64,000 bases of DNA from Patescibacteria group bacterium (GCA_023380305.1 JAMCQZ010000008.1:122659-186658); one strand, 5' to 3'; shown: positions 5,070-61,730, numbered from the stretch's first letter. The notes: a model not told the origin generated them from the letters alone. Translations and numbers: made by a program.

Positions 5070-5222
5070 ATCGCCTTTGTATTCTACAAGAAAACCGCCT
5101 TAGAGCAAACCTTTGACCTGGGGCGTAAAAACGACCGGAGAAACAAATATCCTGGTCGGAGAGCCGAGAATTCCTGTCCGCCGCAGGCGAAGAACTCAAT
5201 CTTGTTTATAAGACCGACTTTG

Positions 5223-5293
5223 TCGGGCTGCCGAGAATCGAACTCGGTCTACATGCTCCCAAAGCATGCGTACTACCGGTATACTACAGCCCG
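5223..5293 (-). tRNA. tRNA-Pro (anticodon TGG)
   Basis: Reverse complement gives CGGGCTGTAGTATACCGGTAGTACGCATGCTTTGGGAGCATGTAGACCGAGTTCGATTCTCGGCAGCCCGA, with the C1:G72 pair typical of tRNA-Pro and anticodon loop TTTGGGA. CCA is not encoded. Confidence 0.85.
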
Positions 5294-5379
5294 GATAAAC
5301 TTTGAAGAGACCGCGGCCGATAAGAGACAATCGTGCCGCGAGAGGGAAGCTTACTACTCGTCATCGCCATCGCCTATCA

Positions 5380-5514
5380 CATTATATAATTTTGTAGGCG
5401 ATTGTCGGACTCCGTTCTTAAACCCCTCGGTTTGAGACCCGCCGGCAGGCGGATCCGCTACGGAAAGTAAACTTCCCGGCCCCTTCTTTTTTCGATATTC
5501 TTACTCGCGTCATA
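5380..5514 (-). repeat. tRNA-associated conserved element, copy E (downstream of tRNA-Phe)
   Basis: The minus-strand read GAAGGGGCCGGGAAGTTTACTTTCC...CCTGCCGGCGGG...AAACCGAGGGGTTTAAGAACGGAG is homologous to the cores after tRNA-Arg(TCT), tRNA-Arg(CCG) and tRNA-Gly. A degenerate copy of the tRNA-Phe 3' end (CTTCCCTCTCGCGGCAC) lies further downstream at ~5320-5345. Confidence 0.45.
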
Positions 5515-5533
5515 AAATGCCCCTGACGGGGCA
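5511..5533 (-). terminator. rho-independent terminator downstream of tRNA-Phe
   Basis: The minus-strand RNA reads GUGCCCC-GUCA-GGGGCAU followed by UUUUAU. Confidence 0.5.
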
Positions 5534-5538
5534 CTTTG

Positions 5539-5610
5539 TGCCGCGAGAGGGAATCGAACCCCCGACGCCATCCTCTTCAGGGATGCGCTCTACCACTGAG
5601 CTATCACGGC
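5539..5610 (-). tRNA. tRNA-Phe (anticodon GAA)
   Basis: Reverse complement gives GCCGTGATAGCTCAGTGGTAGAGCGCATCCCTGAAGAGGATGGCGTCGGGGGTTCGATTCCCTCTCGCGGCA, with anticodon loop CTGAAGA and discriminator A. Confidence 0.85.
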
Positions 5611-5681
5611 CTGAGATAAGGTTAGCATTTCCACCCTGGCTTTTCAATCTCAAAAAAATTGTTGTAGAATGGGTTTGCCAA

Positions 5682-5753
5682 GCCCCTGTAGTTCAACGGA
5701 TAGAACGACGCACTCCTAACGCGCCAATCGAGGTTCAATTCCTCGTGGGGGCA
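5682..5753 (+). tRNA. tRNA-Arg (anticodon CCT), anticodon stem with two A·C mismatches
   Basis: GCCCCTGTAGTTCAACGGATAGAACGACGCACTCCTAACGCGCCAATCGAGGTTCAATTCCTCGTGGGGGCA has good acceptor, D and T arms. The anticodon loop CTCCTAA needs A27·C43 and A31·C39, so it may be a pseudo-tRNA or an isotype I have misread. Confidence 0.55.
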
Positions 5754-5778
5754 CACGCTTTAAAAAGCGTAGGACTAC

Positions 5779-5850
5779 GCCCTCGTAGTTCAATGGACAG
5801 AACCGGAGACTTCTAATCTCTTAATGGGGGTCCGATTCCTCCCGAGGGCA
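5779..5850 (+). tRNA. tRNA-Arg (anticodon TCT)
   Basis: GCCCTCGTAGTTCAATGGACAGAACCGGAGACTTCTAATCTCTTAATGGGGGTCCGATTCCTCCCGAGGGCA, with anticodon loop CTTCTAA. Confidence 0.8.
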
Positions 5851-5853
5851 CAT

Positions 5854-5878
5854 AAATCCGCCGATGAGGCGGATTTTT
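5854..5878 (+). terminator. rho-independent terminator after tRNA-Arg(TCT)
   Basis: AAATCCGCC-GATGA-GGCGGATTTTT. Confidence 0.6.
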
Positions 5879-6078
5879 GGACCACTGGGAGGTCAATCGG
5901 ATTGGAAAAGGGGTCGGGGAAACTACCGTTTCCCCGTGGAGGAAACCTGCCGACAGGCAGGGCTAAAACCGCAGGGTGTTAGAGAAGCCCCTTCCTATTC
6001 TATTGACAATCGTTAGGGGCGAGGGAGATTCCGTGTTTCCCGAGGGCACATAAATCCGCCGACGAGGCGGATTTTTAT
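5879..6078 (+). repeat. tRNA-associated conserved element, copy A, ending in a degenerate tRNA-Arg(TCT) 3' end plus a duplicated terminator
   Basis: The core GGAAAAGGGGTCGGGGAAACTACCGTTTCCCCGTGGAGGAAAC...AAAACCGCAGGGTGTTAGAGAAG is homologous to copies B, C and E. At 6037-6078, TCCCGAGGGCACATAAATCCGCCGACGAGGCGGATTTTT nearly duplicates the tRNA 3' end plus terminator found at 5840-5878. Confidence 0.5.
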
Positions 6079-6083
6079 TAGGC

Positions 6084-6698
6084 TTAATCCTCGAAATACT
6101 TGTTGAACTCCCTGATCAATGTCTGAGCTTTTCGGTTTTGGCTGTTGATCTGACTTACCTGATCGTTGACCTGCTGAAGAATAGAAGAGGTAGCCGCATC
6201 GAAATCTTTCGGAGAATTGCTTAAAAACTTCAACCTCAACTGTTCGAGTAGATTCTGCAGGCCGCCGTTGTAGCTGATCAGCTGATTGACCAAAGTCATC
6301 TCCGCGGAGATGGCCTGCAACCCGGCACCCTGGGCCTGGACAGATTTGATTTCTCCGAGGCTGGCGATCATCTTTTGAAGCTCGGAAAGGAGGCCGATGC
6401 ATTTTTCCCTGATTTCGTTATTCCGTTTGATCTCGACGATCACCAGATCGACGGCTTTTTCGTAATTGCCAGCCTTGTCCTCGCGGCTGATGGCTTCGAG
6501 ATTCGCCGCCGCTTGACTCGAAAGACCGGTAATCTCTTCGGCGATAGCCACGCTGGCTGTTTTGGCTTCCAGAAATTCCGGAGGGACTTCAATTCTTTTA
6601 TTCGGAGAGCGGAAAACAAAGAAAACAGCAACGGCCACCATGGCGATGCCGGAAATTTTCAACCAGAGAAGCGCCTGTTTTTTAGGCATATTTTCCAT
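6084..6698 (-). CDS. hypothetical membrane-anchored protein (N-terminal TM helix, coiled-coil-like remainder)
   Basis: ORF 6084..6854 trimmed to the internal Met (MENMPKKQALLWLKISGIAMVAVAVFFVF...), because the upstream extension overlaps tRNA-Gly. The start is uncertain (6698 or 6689). Confidence 0.45.
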   Translation of the reverse strand: MENMPKKQALLWLKISGIAMVAVAVFFVFRSPNKRIEVPPEFLEAKTASVAIAEEITGLSSQAAANLEAISREDKAGNYEKAVDLVIVEIKRNNEIREKCIGLLSELQKMIASLGEIKSVQAQGAGLQAISAEMTLVNQLISYNGGLQNLLEQLRLKFLSNSPKDFDAATSSILQQVNDQVSQINSQNRKAQTLIREFNKYFED

Positions 6699-6780
6699 AT
6701 TATGAGATTTCTTTACAAGAAGCAAATAATTGATTAACCTGAATAATAGCTTTGTTTTTATAGATAAAAACGCAGAAAAA

Positions 6781-6853
6781 GCGGGATTAGTATAGTGGCA
6801 GTACGCTACCTTGCCAAGGTAATGGCGCCGGTTCGATTCCGGTATCCCGCTCA
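6781..6853 (+). tRNA. tRNA-Gly (anticodon GCC)
   Basis: GCGGGATTAGTATAGTGGCAGTACGCTACCTTGCCAAGGTAATGGCGCCGGTTCGATTCCGGTATCCCGCTCA, with anticodon loop TTGCCAA, discriminator U, and the GCGGGA/TCCCGC acceptor typical of Gly. Confidence 0.85.
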
Positions 6854-6857
6854 TAAT

Positions 6858-6887
6858 AAAATATCCCCTAAAGGGGATATTTTATTT
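6858..6887 (+). terminator. rho-independent terminator after tRNA-Gly
   Basis: ATATCCCC-TAAA-GGGGATAT followed by TTTATTT. Confidence 0.55.
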
Positions 6888-6904
6888 ATACGTGATATCC
6901 GGAT

Positions 6905-6992
6905 GAGTATAGGAAAGGGTCTCCGGCAGTTGCCGGACAAACCGAGTGGTTTGAGCGAGGAGTTGTGCGACGACGTTCGATCCCTATCCTGC
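6905..6992 (+). repeat. tRNA-associated conserved element, copy C, ending in a degenerate tRNA-Gly 3' end
   Basis: AGGAAAGGGTCTCCGGCAGTTGCCGGACAAACCGAGTGGTTTGAGCGAGGAG aligns with copy B (AAGGAAGGTGTCAGGGAACTCGTTCCCT...GAAACCGAGAGGTGTCAGAGAGGAG). GCGACGACGTTCGATCCCTATCCTGC then mimics the tRNA-Gly 3' end GGTTCGATTCCGGTATCCCGC. Confidence 0.4.
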
Positions 6993-7094
6993 TTTATTTT
7001 ACAAAGCCCTTTCCAGCCTATAAACTGAAATAGCCTTTGGGAGTTTAGGTAAGTGGTATACCGGCGGTCTCCAATTCCGCAGACAATCAAAAAT

Positions 7095-15823: not shown

Positions 15824-16711
15824 ATGATCGAAAAATACCTGAAAGACTACCTGGATTACCTGCAGATCGAGAAGAACCGCTCCTACCGGACCAAAGACGT
15901 TTACGGCCGGGCCCTCAAAAAATTCTTCGAGTTCGCCAAAATCAAGAAACCCGAAGACATCACAAACGACAAAATCCGTTCTTTCCGCATCCACCTCGCG
16001 GAAAGCACGAGGTTGAAAAAGAATACCCAAAGCTATTACGTCATCGCCATACGGAACTTCCTCCGTTATCTCATTAAAAGGGATATCGAGGTGATTTCCC
16101 CGGACAAAATCGAATTGCCGCAGATTCCCAAAAGACAGATCGACATCATCGAATACGAAGACCTGGAGCGGCTTTTAAGGGCGCCCGAAGGGTCGAGCCT
16201 CAAGGATCTCCGCGATCGGGCCATTCTCGAACTCCTCTTCTCAACCGGGCTTCGGGTGTCCGAACTCTGCGGACTCGACCGTTATTTAAACTGGAACCGC
16301 GGAGAGATTACCGTCCGCGGCAAAGGCGAAAAACTGCGGGTGGTCTTTATTTCGGACGCTGCCAGAAAAGCCATCAAAAACTACCTTGATAAACGTGGAG
16401 ATCCCGACTCAGCGCTCTTTGTCAGCTACTCGAATAACAAGAACCCGAAAGCCCTCGGCCGGATCACGCCGCGGAGCATCCAAAGACTCGTGGATTTTTA
16501 CAGTCGCAAAGCCGGCATCGCCAAAAGAATTTCGCCCCACACCCTGCGCCACCTTTTCGCGACCGATCTATTGATGAACGGAGCGGATTTGAGATCGGTC
16601 CAGGAGATGCTCGGCCACGCGAGCATCCAGACAACCCAGATCTATACCCACCTCACCAACAAGGCCCTAAAAGAAGTACACGAGGCTTTTCACGGAAGAC
16701 GAAGGAAATAA
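15824..16711 (+). CDS. tyrosine site-specific recombinase, XerC/XerD family
   Basis: N-terminal SAM-like core-binding domain. C-terminal catalytic R..HxxR..Y: [39 protein letters not shown]. Confidence 0.85.
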
Positions 16712-25340: not shown

Positions 25341-25357
25341 AAATAAAGGGTTCGGAT

Positions 25358-25373
25358 TGTTTCACGTGAAACA
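25358..25373. promoter_or_regulatory. isolated perfect parS site (TGTTTCACGTGAAACA)
   Basis: Exact 16-bp ParB/Spo0J parS consensus palindrome. Confidence 0.7.
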
Positions 25374-25681
25374 ATCTGTTTTCACAAAAATGTTTCACAC
25401 CCGATAAATCGGTTGGGGACGACGCCGGGACAAGCTCAAGCAGCCGGTAAATCCAAGGACCAGAAAGCATCCTCCAAAAGCGGATCCCAATCCGCCGACA
25501 CTAACAACGGAAGAGTTAAAACGACCGCTGAAACGGCATCATCGAGCCGGCTGGAACCCAAATCGTTTCGTCGCCTCTTACATCGATAGCCAAGCCAAGC
25601 GCCGAACGAAATTGTCGTTCTCGCCGCGAATGAAATAAAAATATTTTTCAAAACATCTGGTTTGTGATAGATATAAAAAGC

Positions 25682-25753: not shown

Positions 25754-25859
25754 CAGCTGTCAAAAAATCCCTAAAGGGCGGTCCGAAAAACCACGGGCTC
25801 GAATCCTGCGCCGTCCACCGTAAAAAATAAAGCCGCCTCTTTCGAGACGGCTTCGGGGA

Positions 25860-37424: not shown

Positions 37425-39875
37425 ATGAAAAAAGATAACGTCTATAGAGACATTTTTATTTCGGTCGTCGCTCTCGGAATTTTCGCCGCGCTCGCCGGCC
37501 TCTTGGTCTTCTACCGCTTGAGCAAGACTCTTCCGCCAGTCGCTCAGCTCGATGGCGACATCAAGACCGAGTCAACCAAAATCTACGACCGCACCGGGCA
37601 GGTGATGCTCTACGAAATCTACGGTGAGGAGCGCCGCACTATTCTCTCGGCAGATCAAATCCCTGATGTTATGAGGCGAGCGGTGATCGCCGTCGAAGAT
37701 AAGGAATTCTACGGCCATCCGGCCTTCGATATCGCGGCCATGACTAGGGCCCTTATCGCCGACATTTTGAAACAAAGCGCTTCCCAGGGCGGCTCAACCA
37801 TCACTCAGCAGCTCGCCCGGAACGCCTTTTTAACGACCGAACGCTCGATAACGAGAAAGCTCAAGGAGATCATCCTCGCCTATCGCATCGAAAAACTTTA
37901 TTCCAAGGACGAAATCCTGAATCTCTATTTAAACCAGATTCCCTTCGGCCAGAACAGCTACGGCATTGAGGCTGCGAGCCAGACCTATTTCGCCAAACAC
38001 GCCTCCGATCTTAGTCTGTCCGAAGCGGCCCTGCTCGCGGCCGTGGCCAAAGGGCCAAGTTACTTTTCTCCCTGGGGGTCCCACCTCATCGAGCTCGAAG
38101 GCCGCAGGCAATACGTGCTCGAACAGATGGAAAAAGTCGGGTTCATCGACAAGCAGCAGTTGGAAGCCGCGAGAGCGGACAAGCCACGAGTCCTTGCCGA
38201 ACCCCAAAGGGCCAACTTTCATATCGCGCCCCACTTCGTCATTTACGTCCAGGATTATTTAAACCAGAAATACGGGGAGGACTTCGTGAGGAGATCGGGA
38301 ATGAAGGTGATCACCACCTTGGATGTCGACCTCCAGAAACTAGCGAATGAGAAAGTGGCCTCCGGCGGAAAAAGGAATATTGAGATGATCAACGGCCACA
38401 ACGTCGCCCTACTTGCCGAAGACGCGACCAACGGCCAGATACTCGCCATGGTCGGGTCAAGGGATTATTTCGCCGATTCCGAACCAGCCGGTTGCGTTGA
38501 AGGGGAAAACTGCCTCTTCGAGGGAAAATTCAACGTCGCCACTCAGGGATTGAGACAGCCCGGATCCGCTCTAAAACCCTTTGTCTATTCGTTAGCATTC
38601 AAATCAGGCCTGACTCCCGACACCGTCGTTTTCGATGTCCCGACGGAGTTCCGCGCCAACAGCTCTGATTGCCCGGCTGTCCCGAACCTCATCGATGAAA
38701 ACAAAGAATGCTATCATCCGAAAAATTACGACGGTCTTTTCAGGGGGCCGATCATGTTGAAAGACGCCCTGGCGCGGTCTTTAAACATTCCGGCGGTTAA
38801 AGTGCTCCATGTCGTTGGGCTCCAAAATGCCATCAACTGGCTGGAAAGATTCGGCATCACTACCTTGAATGATCCCGACCGCATCGGGCTTTCTCTCACC
38901 CTGGGAGGAGGGGAAATCAGACTGACCGAACTCACGAATGCCTACGCTACCCTGGCAAACGACGGTGTTTTCAATCCTCAAACCGCGATCTTGAGCATCG
39001 CCGATTCCAAGGGGAACGTTTTGGAACAATTCGAACCGAAACCAGAAAGAGCCGTCGACGCCCAATATGCGAGGCTCGTAAACGACATCCTCTCCGATCC
39101 AAAGCTCAGGGAGCCGCTCTTCGGATCAAACCTTTACCTAACCCAGGTCCCGGGCAAACAGATCGCCCTTAAGACAGGAACCGCCGACAACTACGTCGAC
39201 GCTTGGGCCTTCGGCTATTCGCCGCGGCTCGTGGTCGGTCTCTGGGCCGGCAACAACAACCGCCACCCCTTGGGAAAAGCCGGATCAAGTATTCTGGCCG
39301 CAATTCCAACCTGGCACGACTTCGCTATCGAAGCCTTTAAAAACGAACCCGGCCTTACCTTTATCAAGCCAGATCCCATCTATTCCGATTCGCCGATACT
39401 TTTGGGAGCGATCGACCGAAGCAACGTTCACGACCTCCTTTATTTCTTAAACCGGATTTCCGATCCGCAATACCAGAATTGGGAAGAAGACGTCAGAGCC
39501 TGGGTGACCCAAAACGGCATGCCTCTTTATTGGGGCCAGGCCACTTATACCTTTAAAAGCGACGGCCGAGTGGAATTAAACGGTGAAAAAAATATCACCA
39601 TAAGCCTGTCTTTCCCGAAAAACGGCGACTTTATTAATTCCTCGTCCGAATTGAAAGCGTCTGTCTCGGCCGAATCCGGCGTAAAAAGCATCGAACTCCT
39701 ATTAAACAGTCAGCCGATAGACGTTTTCCAGGCCGGTTCAAAAAACATCGTCGATTATCGCTTTGTTTTCGGGACGACTCCATTAAACCCCCAGAATTCG
39801 TTAACCTTACGGGCGACAAATGCTTTAGGGAACTCCACCGAACAAACAATAATCGTCTTTAAGGAGACCGATTAA
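37425..39875 (+). CDS. class A penicillin-binding protein (glycosyltransferase plus transpeptidase) with C-terminal extension
   Basis: GT51 motifs RAVIAVEDKEFYGHP and GGSTITQQLAR. Transpeptidase SALKPF (SxxK) and KTGTA. Confidence 0.85.
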   Translation: MKKDNVYRDIFISVVALGIFAALAGLLVFYRLSKTLPPVAQLDGDIKTESTKIYDRTGQVMLYEIYGEERRTILSADQIPDVMRRAVIAVEDKEFYGHPAFDIAAMTRALIADILKQSASQGGSTITQQLARNAFLTTERSITRKLKEIILAYRIEKLYSKDEILNLYLNQIPFGQNSYGIEAASQTYFAKHASDLSLSEAALLAAVAKGPSYFSPWGSHLIELEGRRQYVLEQMEKVGFIDKQQLEAARADKPRVLAEPQRANFHIAPHFVIYVQDYLNQKYGEDFVRRSGMKVITTLDVDLQKLANEKVASGGKRNIEMINGHNVALLAEDATNGQILAMVGSRDYFADSEPAGCVEGENCLFEGKFNVATQGLRQPGSALKPFVYSLAFKSGLTPDTVVFDVPTEFRANSSDCPAVPNLIDENKECYHPKNYDGLFRGPIMLKDALARSLNIPAVKVLHVVGLQNAINWLERFGITTLNDPDRIGLSLTLGGGEIRLTELTNAYATLANDGVFNPQTAILSIADSKGNVLEQFEPKPERAVDAQYARLVNDILSDPKLREPLFGSNLYLTQVPGKQIALKTGTADNYVDAWAFGYSPRLVVGLWAGNNNRHPLGKAGSSILAAIPTWHDFAIEAFKNEPGLTFIKPDPIYSDSPILLGAIDRSNVHDLLYFLNRISDPQYQNWEEDVRAWVTQNGMPLYWGQATYTFKSDGRVELNGEKNITISLSFPKNGDFINSSSELKASVSAESGVKSIELLLNSQPIDVFQAGSKNIVDYRFVFGTTPLNPQNSLTLRATNALGNSTEQTIIVFKETD

Positions 39876-40981
39876 TCTTTGATCGGCATTAAAATATAGA
39901 AATAAGAAGTGTCGTTCGGCGCTTTGATGATCGCTGGCCGGCTGTCTCCCTGGAGGCCGAATAAAACCGTATCCGTGTAAATGTTTTTCAATCCGTCCAG
40001 GAGATATTTCCAATTAAACGAAGCTTTGACTGGGTCGCCGTTTATTTTCGCGGAAATCAAATATTTGTTTTCCCCGAGTCCGCTGTCGGCCGAATAGACC
40101 TCGACGATCTTTTTGTCGTCTCCCACTTTAACGATCACTTCGCCACTTCTCGCGGTAAACGACCCGGCTAATTTCATAGCGTTCACCAACTCCTGTTTAT
40201 CGATGACTATTTCGGTTTCGAGAATCTTCGGAATGATCGGCCCGTAATCCGGAAACTGCCCGTCGATCAGCCGGGTGATTATCTCCAGGCTTTCTGTCTT
40301 GAAAAGCGCCTGGGAGTCGTCGATAAAAATATGGACATCATCCTCGTCATCCAAAACCCTCACCAACTCCTGGATGGTTTTTAAGGGAATAATGGTTTTT
40401 TTAACCTTTAAGGAATTGCTTTTAAATTGCGTTTCCGGGATAGTTTTTTCTGCTAGCCTAAAACTGTCGGTCGCCACCAATTTGAAAACATTGGTTTCGA
40501 AATTAAAAAGAATGCCGCTTATTTCCGGACGCAAATCGGAAATTTGACAAGCGTTGATTATTTTATTGATTCCTTCCTTTAAGACCGCAGCGGGGATATT
40601 AAAACTTCCTGATTCCGGAGTGATTTTGGGGATAATCGGAAAATCCGAAGGATTCATCCCTTGGATAGTCGCTTCGTAATTATCCGTTTTAAGAAAAAGG
40701 TTGTTCTTTTTCGCTTCAAGGTCAATGCGCTCGCTTTGAAGATTGTTGATCAGACTATTTAAGAGATTAAAAGGGACCGTTACTTCTCCTTGCTCGGTGA
40801 TTTTTCCAGGAACGATTTTTGTGATAGCCGCTTCAAGATTAGTGGAAGCGATGGTGATTTTCGACTGATCCGCTCTAATAAAGATATTTTTTAAGATCGG
40901 CAGATTGAGATTATCTTCGATCGTTCTTGAGACGGCATCCAAGGCATTTTTTAGATTATTACGTAATACGATTATTTTCAT
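39872..40981 (-). CDS. dnaN: DNA polymerase III beta sliding clamp
   Basis: Three-domain beta-clamp layout (MKIIVLRNNLKNALDAVSRTIE...), positioned immediately downstream of dnaA. Confidence 0.85.
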   Translation of the reverse strand: MKIIVLRNNLKNALDAVSRTIEDNLNLPILKNIFIRADQSKITIASTNLEAAITKIVPGKITEQGEVTVPFNLLNSLINNLQSERIDLEAKKNNLFLKTDNYEATIQGMNPSDFPIIPKITPESGSFNIPAAVLKEGINKIINACQISDLRPEISGILFNFETNVFKLVATDSFRLAEKTIPETQFKSNSLKVKKTIIPLKTIQELVRVLDDEDDVHIFIDDSQALFKTESLEIITRLIDGQFPDYGPIIPKILETEIVIDKQELVNAMKLAGSFTARSGEVIVKVGDDKKIVEVYSADSGLGENKYLISAKINGDPVKASFNWKYLLDGLKNIYTDTVLFGLQGDSRPAIIKAPNDTSYFYILMPIKD

Positions 40982-41130
40982 ATATAAATTTGTAGTAGTT
41001 ATCCGTGTGGATTGGTGGATAAGTTGTTTTTCGACGCTTTTTAAATAAGTTTTTTGATATTTATTTTTGTGGATAAAAAGTTTTTATCTGCGTTCGTCTG
41101 TTTTTATCCATAATTTATTCCCGGAATAAT
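40982..41130. promoter_or_regulatory. putative oriC segment: DnaA-box cluster in AT-rich dnaA-dnaN intergenic region
   Basis: A perfect box TGTGGATAA at ~41068-41076, GTGGATAAG at ~41015-41023 and TTATCCATA at ~41104-41112, plus weaker boxes near 40999-41013 and T/A-rich spacers. Confidence 0.6.
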
Positions 41131-42489
41131 TCACAGGTTTTGGGGTTTATTGATTAAATCCTTGATTAGAGAAATTTTTTGATTCAACCCTTGGTCTTTG
41201 GAAAGAGAAAGGTTGATTTTTTCATAGGCGTAGATGGCTGTCGTGTGATCGCGCTTCCCCATTTTTTCGGCAATATAGGGATAAGACATATTGAGAAGTT
41301 CCCGCAGAAGATAAATAGCCACTTGTCTCGGCTCGACGATCTCTTTTTTCCGGCCCCGACCGATCAGGTCGGTTGGGGAGATTTCGTAGAAGGTGGAGAC
41401 GGCTTTAAGCACGTGTGTTGGGCTAATATTGACCGCAGACTGGGTTAAAATATCATTGATGATATTTTCCACTTGTTCGATAGAAAAACCCTCCTGGTGC
41501 TGATTTCTGTAGAAAATAAGCTTGTTTAAAATACCTTCGAGCTCCCGGATATTCCTTTGGATTTTTTTGGCGACGATGCTGATAACGGCGTCGTCGAAAG
41601 CCTCGCTTTTCTCTTGAAGCTTCACTTTAATAATGGCCATCCTTGTTTCGTAGTCCGGGAAGCTGATATCGGCGATCATTCCACCTTCAAACCTCGAACG
41701 AAGCCTTTCTTCGAGTATCGGAATGGCGCGCGGAGGCCGATCCGAAGAAATGATGATCTGTTTATTGGCCTCGTAAAGGGCGTTGAAGGTGTGGAAGAAT
41801 TCTTCTTCAGTTTTCTCCTTTCCGCCGATGAACTGGATATCGTCAATTATTAAGACGTCGACGTTCCGATAGGCTTCTTTGATATCCTCGACGCGTTTGT
41901 TTCTTATCGCCCAGATAACGTCGTTCGTGAACTTTTCCGAGGAGACATATTTGACGTTGACGTTTTTATAGTTGTTTTTTATTTCGTTTCCGATAGCTTG
42001 GATCAAGTGGGTTTTACCGAGGCCGGTGCCGCCGTAAACAAAGAGAGGATTGTATTTTTTGCCGATCTCTTCGATGACAGCGAGCGAAGCGGCGTAAGCC
42101 AGTTCGTTCGAGGAACCGACGACAAACGATTTCAAATTGTATCTTGGATTGAGTCCGGTCTCGGGATCGATCTTAAGTTCGGAGAAAACCAATTGCTTGC
42201 TTTGAGGAGCGGCCGGAGCCTGTTCGGCGGGCTTCTTGAAAACTACGCTATCGACGGCATAACTAATATTTCTGATCGATCCGTCCTTGCTTCTTAAGAC
42301 GCCGAGGATTAATTTATGGTATTTTGTTTCCACCCATTCTTTGGCGAAGTGGTTTGGGAGGATAACAGTCGCCTTTCCGTTTTCGTAATCGTTCATGCGG
42401 CTGTTTTTTAACCAAGTAAGGAAGTTGGGCTTTGAAATTTGTATTTCCAGTTCTGACAAAACGTTTTTCCAAAGCTCTTCCTTATTCAT
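41131..42489 (-). CDS. dnaA: chromosomal replication initiator DnaA
   Basis: AAA+ Walker A GGTGLGKTHLIQAIGNE, box VII, and a C-terminal DNA-binding domain. Confidence 0.9.
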   Translation of the reverse strand: MNKEELWKNVLSELEIQISKPNFLTWLKNSRMNDYENGKATVILPNHFAKEWVETKYHKLILGVLRSKDGSIRNISYAVDSVVFKKPAEQAPAAPQSKQLVFSELKIDPETGLNPRYNLKSFVVGSSNELAYAASLAVIEEIGKKYNPLFVYGGTGLGKTHLIQAIGNEIKNNYKNVNVKYVSSEKFTNDVIWAIRNKRVEDIKEAYRNVDVLIIDDIQFIGGKEKTEEEFFHTFNALYEANKQIIISSDRPPRAIPILEERLRSRFEGGMIADISFPDYETRMAIIKVKLQEKSEAFDDAVISIVAKKIQRNIRELEGILNKLIFYRNQHQEGFSIEQVENIINDILTQSAVNISPTHVLKAVSTFYEISPTDLIGRGRKKEIVEPRQVAIYLLRELLNMSYPYIAEKMGKRDHTTAIYAYEKINLSLSKDQGLNQKISLIKDLINKPQNL

Positions 42490-44190: not shown

Positions 44191-44217
44191 AAAAACGGCC
44201 GAAAGGCCGTTTTTTTA
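44191..44217. terminator. bidirectional terminator (AAAAAACGGCC-GAAA-GGCCGTTTTTTT)
   Basis: Perfect hairpin flanked by A7/T7, between the convergent jag and M23-peptidase genes. Confidence 0.6.
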
Positions 44218-45006
44218 ACCGGCGGGGTTAAAAGGATTGGCGAGGGGGTTGACCCTCGTGCCGTTTAGGGCGATCTCGAAATGCACGTGCGGGCCGGTTG
44301 AACGACCGGTGCTTCCGGCCAAGGCGATTTCTTCGCCTTTGGTAACCGTGTCTCCGACTCTCACAAGCAGCTCGGAACAGTGGCCATAGAGCGTGGTATA
44401 GCCATTCGCGTGTTGAATTTGAATATAATTGCCGTATCCGTCCGGATCAAAGCTGGCGACAATGACTTTGCCCGTCTCCGCTGCATAGACCGGAGCCCCC
44501 ATATTAACCGCGATATCAATCCCGTGATGTACGGAGGCGCCTCGCGGACCGAAAGGAGACGAGATCCAGCCGCTTGAAAGGGTCGGCCAGCTGAAACCGT
44601 TGATCAGTTGTTGGCTTAATCCCCCGACGTTGCTCGGGCCCGAAGACCTGCCTTCGGCAGGAAGATTTATTTTCTGGAGCGGAGGAAGATTGATTTTAAA
44701 CTCCAAAAGAGAAGGATTAATGACGGAAATGATGATGTAGCTCGTGGCGAGGATCCCCAGGCCCCAGGCTGCCTCGGTGATCATCTCTTTGGAACGTTTT
44801 TGTTTGGCCACGTCGTTTGCATGGACCGTGTATTGAAATCCGGCCCAGAGAATAATGAGGAAGGCGATGAATCCACCAAGTTCCCAAGCAAAGACGAACA
44901 GATTTTCGAGCCCTCCGGGGATGAGGCTGTTTAGCGCTTCGAGAATGCCGCTCGAAGACGTTGTCCCGTTGCTCGCCAAGGCGACACCCGTGAAAAAATT
45001 GGACAT
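44215..45006 (-). CDS. M23 (LytM) peptidase with N-terminal pilin-like 2-TM domain (PrgK/VirB1-like function for a T4SS)
   Basis: HHGIDIA...GYGNYIQIQH...HVHFEI are the M23 zinc ligands. N-terminal residues 1-110 resemble the small VirB2-like paralogs (two TM helices with a charged loop). Confidence 0.75.
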   Translation of the reverse strand: MSNFFTGVALASNGTTSSSGILEALNSLIPGGLENLFVFAWELGGFIAFLIILWAGFQYTVHANDVAKQKRSKEMITEAAWGLGILATSYIIISVINPSLLEFKINLPPLQKINLPAEGRSSGPSNVGGLSQQLINGFSWPTLSSGWISSPFGPRGASVHHGIDIAVNMGAPVYAAETGKVIVASFDPDGYGNYIQIQHANGYTTLYGHCSELLVRVGDTVTKGEEIALAGSTGRSTGPHVHFEIALNGTRVNPLANPFNPAG

Positions 45007-45049
45007 ATTATTTCAATTATACTCGAAAACCTGGGAAAGACGACAGCTT

Positions 45050-45415
45050 TTAAAACGGAGTTTTCCTGGCCGTTCCGGCAACCTTGACGATCGTTTGCGC
45101 TTCCGGCCGGCTGATAAGGAAAAAAGTAACGAGCAGAGTGATGGTCTTGATGGGTAAAATATTCAAAATTGGGAAGAGCTCGAAAACGCCGCCGGCGAGA
45201 GACCAAACGCCTTTGATGCCTTTGACAAGCAAATAGCCGTTGATGACAATGCCGGCGATAAGGGCGACGAAAGAATTTAGAAACAGGAAGATGAGCCCGA
45301 CCACCGGCACCAAGCCGAAAAGTCCGTTCAAGAGTTCGAAAAGATCGGCTCCGATCGCCACCAAAAAAAGAATGATCCCCTCGGGCAGCGATATTTTGGG
45401 AGACGCTTTATCCAT
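45050..45415 (-). CDS. small polytopic membrane protein (VirB3-like?) in T4SS-like operon
   Basis: Three predicted TM helices. The start overlaps the stop of the upstream VirB4-like gene (translational coupling). Confidence 0.45.
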   Translation of the reverse strand: MDKASPKISLPEGIILFLVAIGADLFELLNGLFGLVPVVGLIFLFLNSFVALIAGIVINGYLLVKGIKGVWSLAGGVFELFPILNILPIKTITLLVTFFLISRPEAQTIVKVAGTARKTPF

Positions 45416-47760
45416 TAGACGTTTTCCTGCTCCTCGAGACCTTCTTCTCCGGCGAGCGCCGCCTCGGCCTGTTCGGCTTCGACGATCTCTTCCGGATTGG
45501 TAGTGATGATCTGGTGCTCGAAGGGAGAGGCGACGACTTCGATTGCCGCATGGGTCAGCCCCGCGAGAAACAGGCCCTGGCCGATGTCTACCTCAAGAAG
45601 ATAATTCTTTTCCGATTCGGAAAGTCCGAAGGCCTTGCCCGTTGATTCGATGGACGAAGGGGACTGTTTCAAAAGCAGTTGGAGGGATGAGTTGGTGATG
45701 ATCGGCCGGCCGTAGGGAGAGCTTAAAAAGTCCTCCACGTCCTGGGTGATGGTCGAGATGCCGAGATAGTATTTTCTCGCTCTTTTGACGAGGCCGAAAA
45801 GGAATGAGGCCGAATCCGGATATTTCATCATCCACCAGGCCTCATCGATGATCATCAGCCTTTTTTTGAGGTCGGCTCTCACTAGGTTCCAGACGAAATT
45901 CAAAATGATGAACATGGCGATCGGACGGAGTTCGTCTTCGAGGTCGCGGATGGAAAAAACAATGAGCCGGTTATTGGTGTCGATATTCGAAGCCTGGTTC
46001 AAGAACCCGGCATAGCTTCCTTTGGTGAAACGATAGAGCCGGTCGGCCAGGGCACGGCCGCCTTCGATATTTCGGAGGATTTCCTCCAGGTCTTCGAGGA
46101 GCGGCGGCGTGGCGCCGGAGAAGTCCTTGTTCGGCGTGATGTCTTTCGAGGCGTAGGCTTCGGTGATGGCCTGATCAATAACGGCTTCTTCCTCCGGCTT
46201 GATCTCTCCGAACATCAGCTTTAAAAGGCTTGTCAGGTTGACGATGTGTGATTTCAGGACTTCTGGCGGACTCTCGTCTTCCGGAATTTGCGGAACGTCA
46301 AAAGGGTTGATGTGGTTCGGCGAATCGAGCGAAATCTTGATAAAGGATCCGCCCGCGGAATTCGCCAGGTTTTCATATTCGTTTTCCGGATCGATGATGA
46401 TCACCTCGTCGCCGATCATGAGAGATCGGAGCACTTCGAGCTTGGTGGCATAGGATTTTCCGGATCCGGCTTTGGCGAAGACGACGGTGTTGGCGTTTTC
46501 CAAAGAAAACCGGTCGAAGATGATGGGAGTGTTGTTGTGCCGGTTGATGCCGTAGAGTATGCCCTCGTCCGAGGACAGGGTGGCGGAGACGAACGGAAAG
46601 AAAGAAGAAAGCGTGTTGGTGTTGAAGGGATTCGCGATTTCCAGACGGTCCTCGGCGATCGGTAGGGTGGAGTAGAAGCCCTGGAGGTTTTCAAAAAGCA
46701 AAGGCTTGGCGTAGATGAGCTTGGCCTCGAGTCCGCTCGAAATGCGGTCGATGATGCGGTTGAGATCCGAAGAGTCTTTGCCGAAAATGGTCAGATAAAC
46801 GCTTACCGAAAAAAGTTTTTCCTGAGATTGCTGAAGGTTGTCTCGCAAGGCCTCGATATCCTGCAGGGCGGTCTCGAGCATCGGATCCCGGACCAGGCCT
46901 TTCTCTTCGATTTCCATAAGTTGGACCTGGACCTGGGCTGATCGGTTGCGGAGCTGTCTCAAGACGTCTCCTGTCTCGGTGGGCGAAATATGGATGGAAA
47001 TGTCGGCGAGCTCGGCGAGATTGATGAGGCCAGAAAGCCAGCCGCTCGAGAGATACCGCGGATAACCGGAAAGAAAAAGAGATTTGGCTGTCAGCTCGTC
47101 CACCTTTAGGGAGTCCGGAGCGATCTCGAATCGCCGTGGCCCGATGAATTTCTGGGCCTCGGCCGGATTCAGTTTTTCTCCCGGGTTGAAGGCGCTGTAA
47201 AAAAGCTCTCGGAGCTCCGCTTCTTCGAGGACAATGCCGCGGAGCCCGATGCGGTGGAGGCTGTTTATGATCTGGCTGGCCTTGAGATCAAGTTTTTCTT
47301 TGGCTTCGCGGACGGCCGTCGGCTCTGTCTCGGCTGGAGGCTGTTGCCGGCCGATGGTCGGCAGGCTGATGATCTCGTGGGGGATGGTGATGAAAAAACC
47401 TTTTTTCATCACGGCGTTTTCGGCGACGAAATTTTCGATGAACTCCCGATAGATGGCGATTTGGGAACGCATCATCTCGTTCTGCTCCTGGTTTTCTTTT
47501 TCTTTCAGCCGGTTCAAATAGTCGTCGATAAAAAACTTTCTCGAAGAGACGCTGATTTCGATCGGATAGTCGAGGGAGTTTAGGAGATCGGCGAAGGCCG
47601 AAAGGATCATCTGCTGTTCTTCCTCGGATTTAAGATCGAAGTTGACGCCGTTCACCATGATGACCTTGCGGAGTCCGCCGTCTTTCAAAAAAACGGAATC
47701 GCCTTCGATTTTTTTGACCGGCAGGATGTTCTCCGAGGAGATGTTTTGTTTCTGAGCCAT
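45415..47760 (-). CDS. VirB4/TrbE/PrgJ-family type IV secretion ATPase
   Basis: Walker A FAKAGSGKSYATK, Walker B MIIDEAWWMM, plus the N-terminal VirB4 domain. 781 aa. Confidence 0.8.
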   Translation of the reverse strand: MAQKQNISSENILPVKKIEGDSVFLKDGGLRKVIMVNGVNFDLKSEEEQQMILSAFADLLNSLDYPIEISVSSRKFFIDDYLNRLKEKENQEQNEMMRSQIAIYREFIENFVAENAVMKKGFFITIPHEIISLPTIGRQQPPAETEPTAVREAKEKLDLKASQIINSLHRIGLRGIVLEEAELRELFYSAFNPGEKLNPAEAQKFIGPRRFEIAPDSLKVDELTAKSLFLSGYPRYLSSGWLSGLINLAELADISIHISPTETGDVLRQLRNRSAQVQVQLMEIEEKGLVRDPMLETALQDIEALRDNLQQSQEKLFSVSVYLTIFGKDSSDLNRIIDRISSGLEAKLIYAKPLLFENLQGFYSTLPIAEDRLEIANPFNTNTLSSFFPFVSATLSSDEGILYGINRHNNTPIIFDRFSLENANTVVFAKAGSGKSYATKLEVLRSLMIGDEVIIIDPENEYENLANSAGGSFIKISLDSPNHINPFDVPQIPEDESPPEVLKSHIVNLTSLLKLMFGEIKPEEEAVIDQAITEAYASKDITPNKDFSGATPPLLEDLEEILRNIEGGRALADRLYRFTKGSYAGFLNQASNIDTNNRLIVFSIRDLEDELRPIAMFIILNFVWNLVRADLKKRLMIIDEAWWMMKYPDSASFLFGLVKRARKYYLGISTITQDVEDFLSSPYGRPIITNSSLQLLLKQSPSSIESTGKAFGLSESEKNYLLEVDIGQGLFLAGLTHAAIEVVASPFEHQIITTNPEEIVEAEQAEAALAGEEGLEEQENV

Positions 47761-61378: not shown

Positions 61379-61453
61379 GCCTCGGTAGTTCAATGGATAG
61401 AATGCGAGCCTCCGAAGCTTGCGATGAAGGTTCGATTCCCTCCCGAGGCACCA
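61379..61453 (+). tRNA. tRNA-Arg (anticodon CCG) with encoded CCA
   Basis: GCCTCGGTAGTTCAATGGATAGAATGCGAGCCTCCGAAGCTTGCGATGAAGGTTCGATTCCCTCCCGAGGCACCA, with anticodon loop CTCCGAA. Confidence 0.8.
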
Positions 61454-61481
61454 AAAAATACTGCCTGTGGCAGTATTTTTG
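61454..61481 (+). terminator. rho-independent terminator after tRNA-Arg(CCG)
   Basis: AAAAATACTGCC-TGT-GGCAGTATTTTT. Confidence 0.6.
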
Positions 61482-61680
61482 TGCCCTGGAGAAGATTGAG
61501 AACAAGGAAGGTGTCAGGGAACTCGTTCCCTGCGGAGGAAGAACTGAAACCGAGAGGTGTCAGAGAGGAGCGGACGCGAAGTCCCGAGCTTATCGAGGGA
61601 CGGAGACGGTAGCGACGATGTTCGCTTCCCTCCCGAGGCACAACACAAAGCCGCCTTGAAGGCGGCTTTGTGTTACCCCT
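61482..61680 (+). repeat. tRNA-associated conserved element, copy B, ending in a degenerate tRNA-Arg(CCG) 3' end plus a second terminator
   Basis: The core AAGGAAGGTGTCAGGGAACTCGTTCCCTGCGGAGGAAGAAC...GAAACCGAGAGGTGTCAGAGAGGAG is followed by GCGACGATGTTCGCTTCCCTCCCGAGGCAC (compare the tRNA 3' end GCGATGAAGGTTCGATTCCCTCCCGAGGCACCA). The hairpin AAAGCCGCC-TTGAA-GGCGGCTTT follows. Confidence 0.5.
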
Positions 61681-61730
61681 GGCCTTTCGATCTCCTTTAA
61701 GCTCCTCATTTTTTTCTCTATAATTAGTCT

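Follow-up and report, generated by a model that had tools for sequence, protein, structure and literature searches.

A 64,000-nucleotide (nt) stretch of DNA from a Patescibacteria group bacterium (GCA_023380305.1, JAMCQZ010000008.1:122659-186658), called the window here at its full length, carries several copies of a short, structured sequence behind its tRNA genes, each ending in a second, degenerate 3′ end of the preceding tRNA. These copies very probably belong to a real family of elements whose insertions differ between related genomes. The reading that we favor, with a probability of roughly 0.4, is that they are small, non-coding, non-autonomous mobile elements of Patescibacteria, which insert at the ends of conserved genes and are guided and mobilized in trans. 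Considering that they fail the defining tests of every family considered, we rate them as a new kind of small mobile element. A preliminary description of the window had proposed a miniature integrative element, which was a fair first description; an inverted segment complementary to the target, targets other than tRNA genes, and insertion polymorphism are the points that go beyond it. About 15 independent copies underlie the family-wide statements made below.

Detection of the element family in the window

Four occurrences of the motif AAACCGNNNGGTNTNAG were counted in the window, where 0.32 would be expected; none of 100 shuffled sequences equaled this count. The four sites, at 5966 (+; copy A), 6939 (+; copy C), 61547 (+; copy B), and 5433 (-; copy E), lie 60-160 nt downstream of tRNA-Arg(TCT), tRNA-Gly, tRNA-Arg(CCG), and tRNA-Phe, respectively, all on the tRNA's own strand; ARAGORN finds 11 tRNA genes in the window. 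The preliminary description had called the cores behind these four tRNAs homologous, and indeed they could be aligned with MAFFT and were recovered by a covariance model (CM R1, built from 12 copies) with scores of 75 (B), 55.3 (A), 52.1 (E), and 46 bits (C) and E-values from 5e-21 to 4e-12. The same model found no copy in the window beyond A, B, C, and E. Over all sequences, 13 distinct copies scored 46-94 bits and two decayed copies 20-24 bits.

To find repeated gene ends, a query made of the 3′-terminal 40 nt of each tRNA and the first 40 nt of its trailer was aligned to the sequence further downstream. Second copies of the 3′ end were detected for five tRNAs (Arg-TCT, Arg-CCG, Phe, Val, and Gly), with control tRNAs that lack an element scoring 18-22; the score of 22 for tRNA-Pro is not significant by itself. 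The earlier claim that each 3′ fragment is specific to its upstream tRNA holds in these alignments for Arg-TCT, Arg-CCG, Phe, and Gly. A promoter and terminator scanner was uninformative, as it missed obvious terminators.

Anatomy of the elements

Read along the strand of the element, the order is gene body, X, a linker of 0-25 nt, IR-L, core, X′, and original flank. X is the last or first 35-80 nt of the gene, reaching at tRNA genes usually through the terminator. IR-L is an inverted segment of 10-17 nt directly 5′ of the AAGGGG box; the part of the target to which it is complementary abuts or spans the left edge of X. The conserved core measures ~85-105 nt and the whole unit ~130-200 nt, without an open reading frame (ORF). 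The left X completes the working gene, and its right copy X′ decays. The gene body always lies to the left of the element, which is therefore sense to tRNAs and to genes targeted at their 3′ end, and antisense to genes targeted at their 5′ end. All ~15 copies are located at most 80 nt from a gene end, and none is purely intergenic. A fixed unit length of ~171-177 nt, suggested by five copies (L002, L004, L005, L006, and L014), was dropped when more copies gave ~132-200 nt.

The core opens with a RAAGGGGKC box, followed by a first hairpin, P1 (GGGGAAAC-loop-GTTTCCCC), the sequence GTGGMGGAA, a second hairpin, P2 (CTRAAACC-GAGN-GGTTTYAG), and a purine-rich tail (RGNGGAG-CGAAG-CGAYGAY) ending in GCGAYGAY, after which X′ begins. 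Across 15 copies aligned to the covariance model, P1 and P2 are paired at 96.6% of positions, compared to 90.3% in shuffles. The hairpins that had been described as compensatory (GGGGAAAC/GTTTCCCC, AGGGAAC/GTTCCCT, and TCCGGCA/TGCCGGA) are present, with covariation limited to three pairs that change on both sides. The sequence of P2 hardly varies, a hint that it is recognized by a partner and not conserved for its structure alone. Palindrome-associated transposable elements (PATEs) are defined by subterminal hairpins at both ends; here, the two hairpins share GAAAC/GTTTC, and neither extends into the left-hand third of the unit.

An optional third hairpin, CCTGCC-GNNA-GGCAGG, is found at varying positions: after GGAGGAAA in copies A (5947-5962) and E (5440-5455, -), and between the box and P1 in copy L021a of a metagenome locus (L021, 10120-10141). 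In sequence it behaves like a separate mini-insertion or a variable stem.

The possibility that the core encodes a small protein was considered and rejected. Reading frames are open on both strands, but the alternation of CTA/CTG/CTC with TTT/TTC/TTG is base-pair covariation. When 5.8 billion proteins were searched with the peptides that the core would encode, only two weak matches emerged, both of them spurious ORFs running through elements. In one of these (P0006) the core peptide is flanked on either side by the same peptide, which mirrors the X-core-X′ layout, and the other (P0007) spans two tandem copies.

The copies in the window

Copy A follows tRNA-Arg(TCT) (5779-5851, +; ARAGORN and Rfam tRNA), and the left direct repeat (DR-L) is made up of this tRNA's T-arm together with its acceptor 3′ strand. 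Its terminator T1 (ATAAATCCGCCGATGAGGCGGATTTTT, 5852-5878, +) falls within the duplicated segment and recurs at 6050-6076 with 1 mismatch. IR-L (GGGAGGTCAATCGGA, 5887-5901, +) is a degenerate reverse complement of the tRNA-Arg T-arm that was aligned against GGGAGG--AATCGGA; 5 of 2000 shuffles reach its score, and its duplex with its own target zone has an energy of -27.6 kcal/mol, compared to a mean of -18.0 for non-cognate zones. The core (5901-6002, +; 55.3 bits, E 7e-15) holds the AAGGGGTC box, P1 (5916-5935), an extra hairpin CCTGCCGACAGGCAGG, and P2 with AAACCGCAGGGTGT. The right direct repeat (DR-R; 6027-6076, +; score 76) consists of the tRNA-Arg(TCT) 3′ end and the terminator, with a 5-nt insertion after GATTCC and otherwise 1 mismatch in ~40 nt, terminator included.

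Copy E lies on the minus strand, behind tRNA-Phe (5538-5610, -; ARAGORN and Rfam tRNA), a gene that is identical in the relative L025. It consists of a terminator T1 (AAAGTGCCCCGTCAGGGGCATTTTA, 5513-5537, -), an IR-L (TGACGCGAGTAAGAATATCGAA, 5491-5512, -) that matches, in degenerate form, the reverse complement of the acceptor 3′ strand and T-arm in tRNA-Phe (10 of 2000 shuffles; duplex-energy rank 1 of 14), a core with the extra hairpin TCCGCCTGCCGGCGGG (5397-5492, -; 52.1 bits), and a variable spacer plus DR-R (5333-5396, -). DR-R itself runs from 5371 to 5333 (ending in GCTTCCCTCTCGCGGCAC; score 36.5) and is followed by the original Phe-Pro spacer. The extent given earlier, 5380-5514, leaves this DR-R outside. 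The variable spacer also contains a promoter-like CCGACA-16-TATAAT (5381-5408, -) that faces tRNA-Pro, and the terminator of copy E would otherwise separate tRNA-Pro from the tRNA-Phe promoter.

Copy C (6853-7009, +) follows tRNA-Gly(GCC) (6781-6852, +; ARAGORN and Rfam tRNA). Behind T1 (6853-6889) and IR-L (CGTGATATCCGGA, 6891-6903) it has a short core without the GTGGCGGAA linker (model match 6895-6975, +; 46 bits), and its DR-R, after GCGACGAC, is at 6967-7009 (+; score 29). Copy B (61454-61682, +) follows tRNA-Arg(CCG) (61379-61453, +; ARAGORN and Rfam tRNA) with T1 at 61454-61480, IR-L at 61481-61503, a core at 61501-61581 (75 bits), a spacer, and DR-R with a diverged terminator T2 at 61605-61682 (+; score 58.5). 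A duplicated terminator had been noted in both A and B; it is near-identical in A, and in B there is only a diverged homologue. The nearest relative of copy B is the first element of the relative L024 (L024-E1), which is located at tRNA-Arg(TCT).

Two shorter versions had been reported as well. Behind tRNA-Pro (5155-5221, -) lie an IR-L-like AAGATTGAG, a hairpin CCTGCGGCGGACAGG, and a DR-R AATTCTCGGCTCTCCGACC with the acceptor strand of an L025-type tRNA-Pro (CTCTCCG), without a covariance-model match; read against its relatives, we take this to be an internally deleted copy. Behind tRNA-Val (25755-25828, +) there is indeed a second T-arm and acceptor 3′ end, from a different allele (25796-25828; score 32.5), with neither core nor covariance-model match; it is a possible relic of the family.

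IR-L tracks the target gene

IR-L is degenerate in the old copies of the window and perfect in younger copies from other genomes. In L005, IR-L (GGGGGATCGAAC) is the perfect complement of GTTCGATCCCCC in tRNA-Glu, and in L021a, IR-L (AATCCCGCGCCG) is the perfect complement of CGGCGCGGGATT in rplK. The IR-L of L018 matches GCAACCATATCCAAA of a SpoU-like gene at 14 of 15 positions, and those of L002 and L006 each fit their own T-loop. In a 14 × 14 comparison of IR-L segments and targets, the longest complementary run was found with the copy's own target in 11 of 14 copies; for targets other than tRNAs, the perfect run with the own target measured 10-13 nt, compared to at most 7 for any other target. 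Ranked by RNA duplex energy, the own target zone came first of 14 in nine copies, and first or second in 12.

Pairing of IR-L is in most copies much stronger with the functional gene than with the downstream relic X′, and in L014 and L022, where the two repeats differ, it follows the working copy. For this reason, the idea that IR-L forms a stem closing the core was rejected.

Gain, loss, and allele replacement among relatives

Two relatives from metagenomes (JGI 3300037067) encode homologues of the 204-aa protein whose gene lies between copy A and tRNA-Gly (80% identical in L025 and 72% in L024). L025 has the same cluster as the window, in the order Gly, gene, Arg-TCT, Arg-CCT, Phe, Pro, His; there is no covariance-model match in this cluster, and the elements are missing from all six tRNA sites. 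In L025 the Phe-Pro and Pro-His gaps measure ~46 nt each, whereas the window has 244 nt and 153 nt at these places. Between tRNA-Arg-TCT and the end of the neighboring gene there are ~38 nt in L025, and between tRNA-Gly and the next gene ~48 nt. In other words, L025 has gaps of 38-48 nt where the window has copies A, C, and E and the tRNA-Pro relic, which bears out insertion, as proposed in the preliminary description, rather than conservation of a spacer. The Phe-Pro spacer of L025, AAATTGACTCTTATCGGCCGCG, recurs in the window as GATTGTCTCTTATCGGCCGCG after X′, so that X′ is continuous with the ancestral flank. Terminator T1 of copy E is missing from the empty site of L025 and was therefore not part of the ancestral spacer.

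L024 carries two tandem elements at tRNA-Arg-TCT: an intact one in first place (83.6 bits), which resembles window copy B most closely, and a decayed one behind it (20.6 bits). At its tRNA-Gly only a stump is left, consisting of IR-L and the start of the box, that is clearly orthologous to window copy C. Among close relatives, elements have thus been gained, stacked, decayed, and lost. The tRNA-Arg(TCT) 3′-end relics of window copy A (6027-6049) and of L024-E1 (11082-11057, -) both have inserts of 4-5 nt at the same place, between GATTCC and TCCCGAGG, and these inserts differ (GTGTT vs. ATGA).

The tRNA genes themselves have also changed. The tRNA-Pro of the window (5222-5293) differs from that of L025 (1778-1849) over its full length, with a compensated acceptor stem (CGGGCTG/CAGCCCG vs. 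CGGAGAG/CTCTCCG) and changes in the D-loop and anticodon stem, next to an identical tRNA-Phe. It looks as if foreign DNA had replaced the allele of the entire gene. In L022 and L014 and at the tRNA-Pro and tRNA-Val of the window, the relic represents another allele than the working copy.

Copies in other genomes and protein-gene targets

A pattern scan with the exact sequence AAACCGAGNGGTKTNAGNNNGGAG was run over one genome per species (596 Gb) and over metagenomes. The genome scan yielded four true loci. L002 and L006 share one contig of a metagenome-assembled genome (MAG) labelled Bdellovibrionales (CAYFUG010000005.1) and lie after tRNA-Gly-TCC and tRNA-Thr; L004, from a Patescibacteria MAG, is at the 3′ end of a gene for a 608-aa membrane or glycosidase-like protein; and L005, from a Doudnabacteria MAG, lies after tRNA-Glu. 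The metagenome scan added L008, L014, L018, L021, and L022. The remaining hits (L001, L003, L007, L009-L013, L015, L017, L019, and L023) were discarded as chance matches in coding or unrelated sequence.

In several of these copies the direct repeats are perfect or nearly so: 55 of 55 nt in both L002 and L006, 60 of 62 in L004, where the last 62 nt of the 608-aa ORF return after the core with 2 mismatches, and 66 of 69 in L021a. They are more diverged in L022 (55 nt at ~75% identity), and L014 has a repeat of ~60 nt. Two elements flank rplK in L021. L021a sits on the opposite strand at codon 22, with a 69-nt repeat of the first 22 codons, and L021b, at the 3′ end, is diverged (24 bits), with its own IR-L and a decayed repeat. 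L022 occupies the same rplK 5′ site as L021a, and L018 the 5′ end of a SpoU-like methyltransferase gene. In L008 the left side is the 5′ end of a TrxB-like gene, and the core, right repeat, and flank are identical to those of the rplK copy L022; identical cores are thus found at different genes, recombined either in the cell or in the assembly. The cores of L002 and L006, at different tRNAs on one contig, are ~88% identical, and their right ends share a mutated T-loop, CTGAGAT, despite the different tRNAs. Near-identical cores at different genes, together with perfect repeats of 55-69 nt, indicate recent new insertions.

Protein genes are thus targeted at both their 3′ and their 5′ ends, with the element running sense or antisense to transcription. 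This overturns the earlier restriction of the family to tRNA 3′ ends and argues against the alternative, raised at the same time, of a non-coding RNA co-transcribed with tRNAs, as well as against plain footprints of an integrase specific for tRNAs. At or just left of the junction, GCGC(A) is found in four of the five non-tRNA targets (L004, L008, L021, and L022: GCGCAGCAT, GCGCAACATGG, GCGCAGAATGG, and GGCGGCGC), the SpoU junction reads TGCA, and the tRNA junctions read TCGA. These motifs resemble the GCGAYGAY of the right end and may reflect a weak target preference.

Runs of exactly 100 N, that is, scaffold gaps, lie beside the elements L002 (7360-7560) and L006 (170-269) of CAYFUG010000005.1. 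Past the L002 gap there is a second linker, IR-L, box, and 5′ half of P1, broken at GGGGGAA|GTTAGG; an hsdM-like gene begins ~300 nt further downstream. Tandem arrays or rearrangements at these sites are a likely reading, in addition to assembly trouble caused by the repeats.

Searches for known families, enzymes, and parents

When the whole window was scanned with Rfam, at the gathering threshold as well as at a cutoff of E ≤ 5, tRNAs and chance matches were all that appeared, with nothing on the cores. Among viral contigs, the first core pattern gave one chance match, the second gave none, and there was no true copy; BLAST of the complete unit against plasmids and phages gave nothing, and literature searches turned up no described element of this design. 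Pfam scans of the 40 largest ORFs of the window, that is, of 64 kb of genome, detected no reverse transcriptase, transposase, or Y1 (HUH) protein, and only a Xer-like recombinase. The other large ORFs are housekeeping genes, encoding SHMT, aminoacyl-tRNA synthetases, ClpP, NusA, PNPase, GyrA, FtsH, DnaA/DnaN, RuvABC, and a type IV secretion-like cluster. A survey of Patescibacteria reported TnpB-linked (IStron/IS605-type) elements and did not find group II introns (PMC13011429).

The Xer-like gene (15824-16711, ~9 kb away) had been put forward as the candidate partner of the elements. Its rpsO / tRNA-Leu context recurs in L024, so that it has the look of a gene conserved on the chromosome, and nothing in the sequence could be shown to connect it to the elements. 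No integrase-carrying parent was found in the genome, metagenome, or viral scans. Every true match in the 596 Gb of genomes and in the metagenome scan is small and without an ORF, which makes it unlikely that the copies are the decayed ends of a larger mobile element, as had also been considered.

Comparison with known systems

Elements that integrate into tRNA genes, including their integrase-less derivatives of the cis-mobilizable type (CIMEs), are similar in that the gene is split near its end, a replacement end is supplied, the displaced end decays as a direct repeat, and elements accrete in tandem. In a test against this class, direct repeats of the 3′ part of the target were present, but the tRNA T-loops, rplK, SpoU, TrxB, and the gene for the glycosidase-like protein have no att core in common, and what recurs among them is limited to a short palindrome of GCGC/TCGA-like sequence. 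Unlike this class, moreover, the family is ~130-200 nt long without an ORF, has many unrelated targets including the 5′ ends of protein genes, and carries an inverted segment complementary to its target, with no integrase or parent found.

With the IS200/IS605 elements and PATEs, the family shares its small size and the absence of fixed terminal inverted repeats, and its two related hairpins (with GAAAC/GTTTC) may be comparable to theirs. IS608 recognizes its target by an internal guide that pairs with the sequence at the left junction, and here, too, the segment 5′ of the first hairpin is complementary to the left-junction sequence. In IS608, however, guides are ~4 nt long and targets short and fixed, whereas the complement measured here is 10-17 nt and gene-specific. 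Members of IS200/IS605 insert without a duplication or a host gene end, and the 64-kb window contains no identified Y1 transposase. A standard derivative of this group (PATE) was rejected, as the left junctions have no fixed short motif and the direct repeats are long. A TnpB/omega-RNA-like arrangement, with the core as scaffold and X′ as 3′ guide, was rejected too: such a guide would also match the intact working copy, and there is no common adjacent motif.

A structured non-coding core with a short target-pairing segment that covaries with the target is likewise a feature of IS110 bridge RNAs and of the exon-binding sequences of group I and II introns. The family differs in having no adjacent DEDD recombinase or ribozyme, no Rfam match, and a long direct duplication of the target; a group I or II intron, moreover, would need a larger core. 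An IS110-type element was rejected on the lack of an adjacent ORF or DEDD recombinase and on repeats that are long rather than 2 nt. Like MITEs (miniature inverted-repeat transposable elements) and the REP/BIME, Correia, and RPE repeats, the copies are small, multicopy, non-coding, structured, mostly at gene ends, and variable between strains. They cannot be MITEs or repeats of this kind in the usual sense, given that family-wide terminal inverted repeats are lacking, the inverted segment differs with each target, and the gene-end duplications measure 35-80 nt instead of 2-10 bp. In integron attC sites and the attP of CTX phage, an inverted-segment hairpin presents a double-stranded copy of the target, and AAC...GTT-flavored stems and tandem arrays also recall the present family; those sites, however, are fixed sequences for IntI or XerCD with attI or dif as targets, whereas here the stem changes with the target gene. 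Finally, a diversity-generating retroelement (DGR) was rejected because the mismatches in L004 and L021a are not adenine-specific and the window has no reverse transcriptase, and a long terminal repeat (LTR)-like layout with primer-binding site and polypurine tract was rejected on strand geometry.

Proposed mechanism and alternative explanations

In the mechanism that we favor, the mobile unit would be [X-linker-IR-L-core], or a circular permutation thereof. An enzyme provided in trans would act on it as a folded single strand, either DNA or RNA, and insert it so that the left edge of X forms the junction with the target. IR-L would pair with the target strand across the joining site and thereby specify it, with the two related hairpins and the GCGAYGAY end serving as handles for the enzyme. 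The X borne by the element, often with a terminator, would keep the split gene functional. That the element brings its own X, rather than creating a duplication by a staggered cut, is favored by the position of all copies at gene ends, by the different alleles of working copy and relic, with IR-L following the working copy, and by the CTGAGAT shared by L002 and L006. It is possible, though we hold it only tentatively, that the family represents an undescribed class of elements, in which a ~100-nt protein-less core picks its site by a 10-17 nt base-pairing segment and protects the gene with a replacement end, forming a programmable gene-end cassette served by an enzyme in trans.

Several points weigh against guided insertion. 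No enzyme was identified, and no free or circular form, or its junction, was seen. The mechanism does not account for the joint origin of a new X and its matching IR-L. The B-like element of L024 at tRNA-Arg-TCT has an Arg-TCT-type X, so that X can be renewed locally, which weighs against an X brought by the element. The lineage of copy B and L024-E1 has a degenerate IR-L and yet occupies two different tRNA-Arg genes, which implies either that perfect pairing is not strictly needed or that these copies are dead. In young copies, whose repeats are perfect, these repeats could also stem from a staggered cut that duplicated 35-80 nt of the target. The covariation of the hairpins is modest (3 of 11 pairs changed on both sides), and RNA and single-stranded DNA are both compatible with it; a few G-U pairs speak for the element strand, whereas the opposite strand is favored by a single C-A mismatch that copy E has in P2. 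The number of independent copies, ~15, is also small.

One alternative would be a miniature Campbell-type integration, in which a circle with attP and a gene end is inserted by a tyrosine recombinase, either the Xer-like protein or the integrase of a parent, with IR-L playing no part in guidance or merely supplying one half of a folded attP. Duplications that run from the T-loop to the tRNA 3′ end are typical of tRNA-integrating elements, and those seen here begin in or near the T-loop and reach the 3′ end and beyond. Working copy and relic differ in allele (Pro, Val, L014, and L022) as if the element brought the gene end, elements are stacked in tandem at the working tRNA in L024, and a Xer-like recombinase is present in both the window and L024. 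We nevertheless consider this rather unlikely: the junctions have no common sequence resembling a recombinase site beyond the weak GCGC/TCGA-type palindrome, the genome, metagenome, and viral scans hold no integrase-carrying parent, a double-stranded circle of 130-200 bp would be a poor substrate for recombination, and the tracking of each target by IR-L is left unexplained. A structured RNA or DNA module useful to the host, such as a terminator, insulator, or regulatory hairpin spread by duplication and homologous recombination, would account for a core with paired hairpins conserved across distant Patescibacteria. It would also give meaning to the hairpin of IR-L and gene end, which encloses the stop codon in L021b, the start codon in L018 and at rplK, or a tRNA terminator, to the terminators brought by tRNA-linked copies, and to the promoter-like site for tRNA-Pro in copy E. 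Such a module is improbable, as the copies are dispensable (missing at the six tRNA sites of L025 and decaying at L024-E2, L024-Gly, and the window tRNA-Pro), as elements that are sense to tRNAs and antisense to rplK, SpoU, and TrxB have no common RNA-level relation to the gene, and as point mutation would hardly produce a perfect target complement of 13-17 nt each time a new gene is reached.

The absence of any active mobility, with old segmental duplications at gene ends and a repeat moved between related genomes by homologous recombination or transformation, has in its favor that the tRNA-Pro of the window is a xenologous whole-gene allele beside a relic of the ancestral 3′ end, which speaks for recombination with foreign DNA at these loci, that L008 is a hybrid of two copies, and that recombination between repeats could explain the precise loss in L025. 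Homologous recombination cannot, however, put one core at unrelated genes, each with its own X and IR-L, and perfect repeats of 55-69 nt around near-identical cores look like recent insertions, so that we give this explanation little weight. Most doubtful of all is a retro-element product, in which a core RNA is copied by reverse transcriptase through target priming or template switching at gene or transcript ends, leaving LINE/SINE-like duplications. The duplications are indeed long and variable (35-80 nt), at tRNAs they often stop at or just past the U-tract of the terminator, which is the 3′ end of the transcript, and the purine-rich tract adjoining X′ and the tRNA-complementary segment near X superficially resemble an LTR polypurine tract and primer-binding site. 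At protein genes, however, the duplications do not stop at a terminator; IR-L as a primer-binding site would give inverted instead of direct repeats, the differences between repeats lack the adenine pattern of DGRs, no reverse transcriptase is encoded in the window, and group II introns are reported to be absent from Patescibacteria (PMC13011429).

Should IR-L direct insertion, the family would constitute a minimal nucleic-acid-guided DNA insertion system, made of a ~100-nt core and a short programmable segment, which is the kind of lead that stood behind the TnpB/IscB and IS110 bridge-RNA tools. Even without guidance, it would be the first defined small mobile repeat family of Patescibacteria. 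It accounts for pseudo-tRNA 3′ ends and gene-end fragments in reduced genomes and marks sites of tRNA allele replacement, and the scaffold gaps and hybrid contigs at element loci call for caution in annotation and assembly.

Other features of the window

The window also contains dnaN and dnaA (in the regions noted at 39872-42489 and 44215-47760), followed by a type IV secretion-like cluster (pilin, M23 peptidase, and a TraG/VirB4-like ATPase), and the replication origin is probably located near 42.6 kb. Copies A and C, on the plus strand, and copy E, on the minus strand, all fall to one side of dnaA, so that there is no strict replication-strand bias. Behind tRNA-Ile(TAT), at 25355-25376, there is a perfect 22-nt palindrome, GATTGTTTCACGTGAAACAATC. 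A similar palindrome, TGTTTCACGTGAAACA, lies upstream of a reading frame that, judged by eye from its translation, is SSB-like, in the unrelated chance-match locus L009; palindromes of the GATTGTTTCACGTGAAACAATC type may be operator-type sites.

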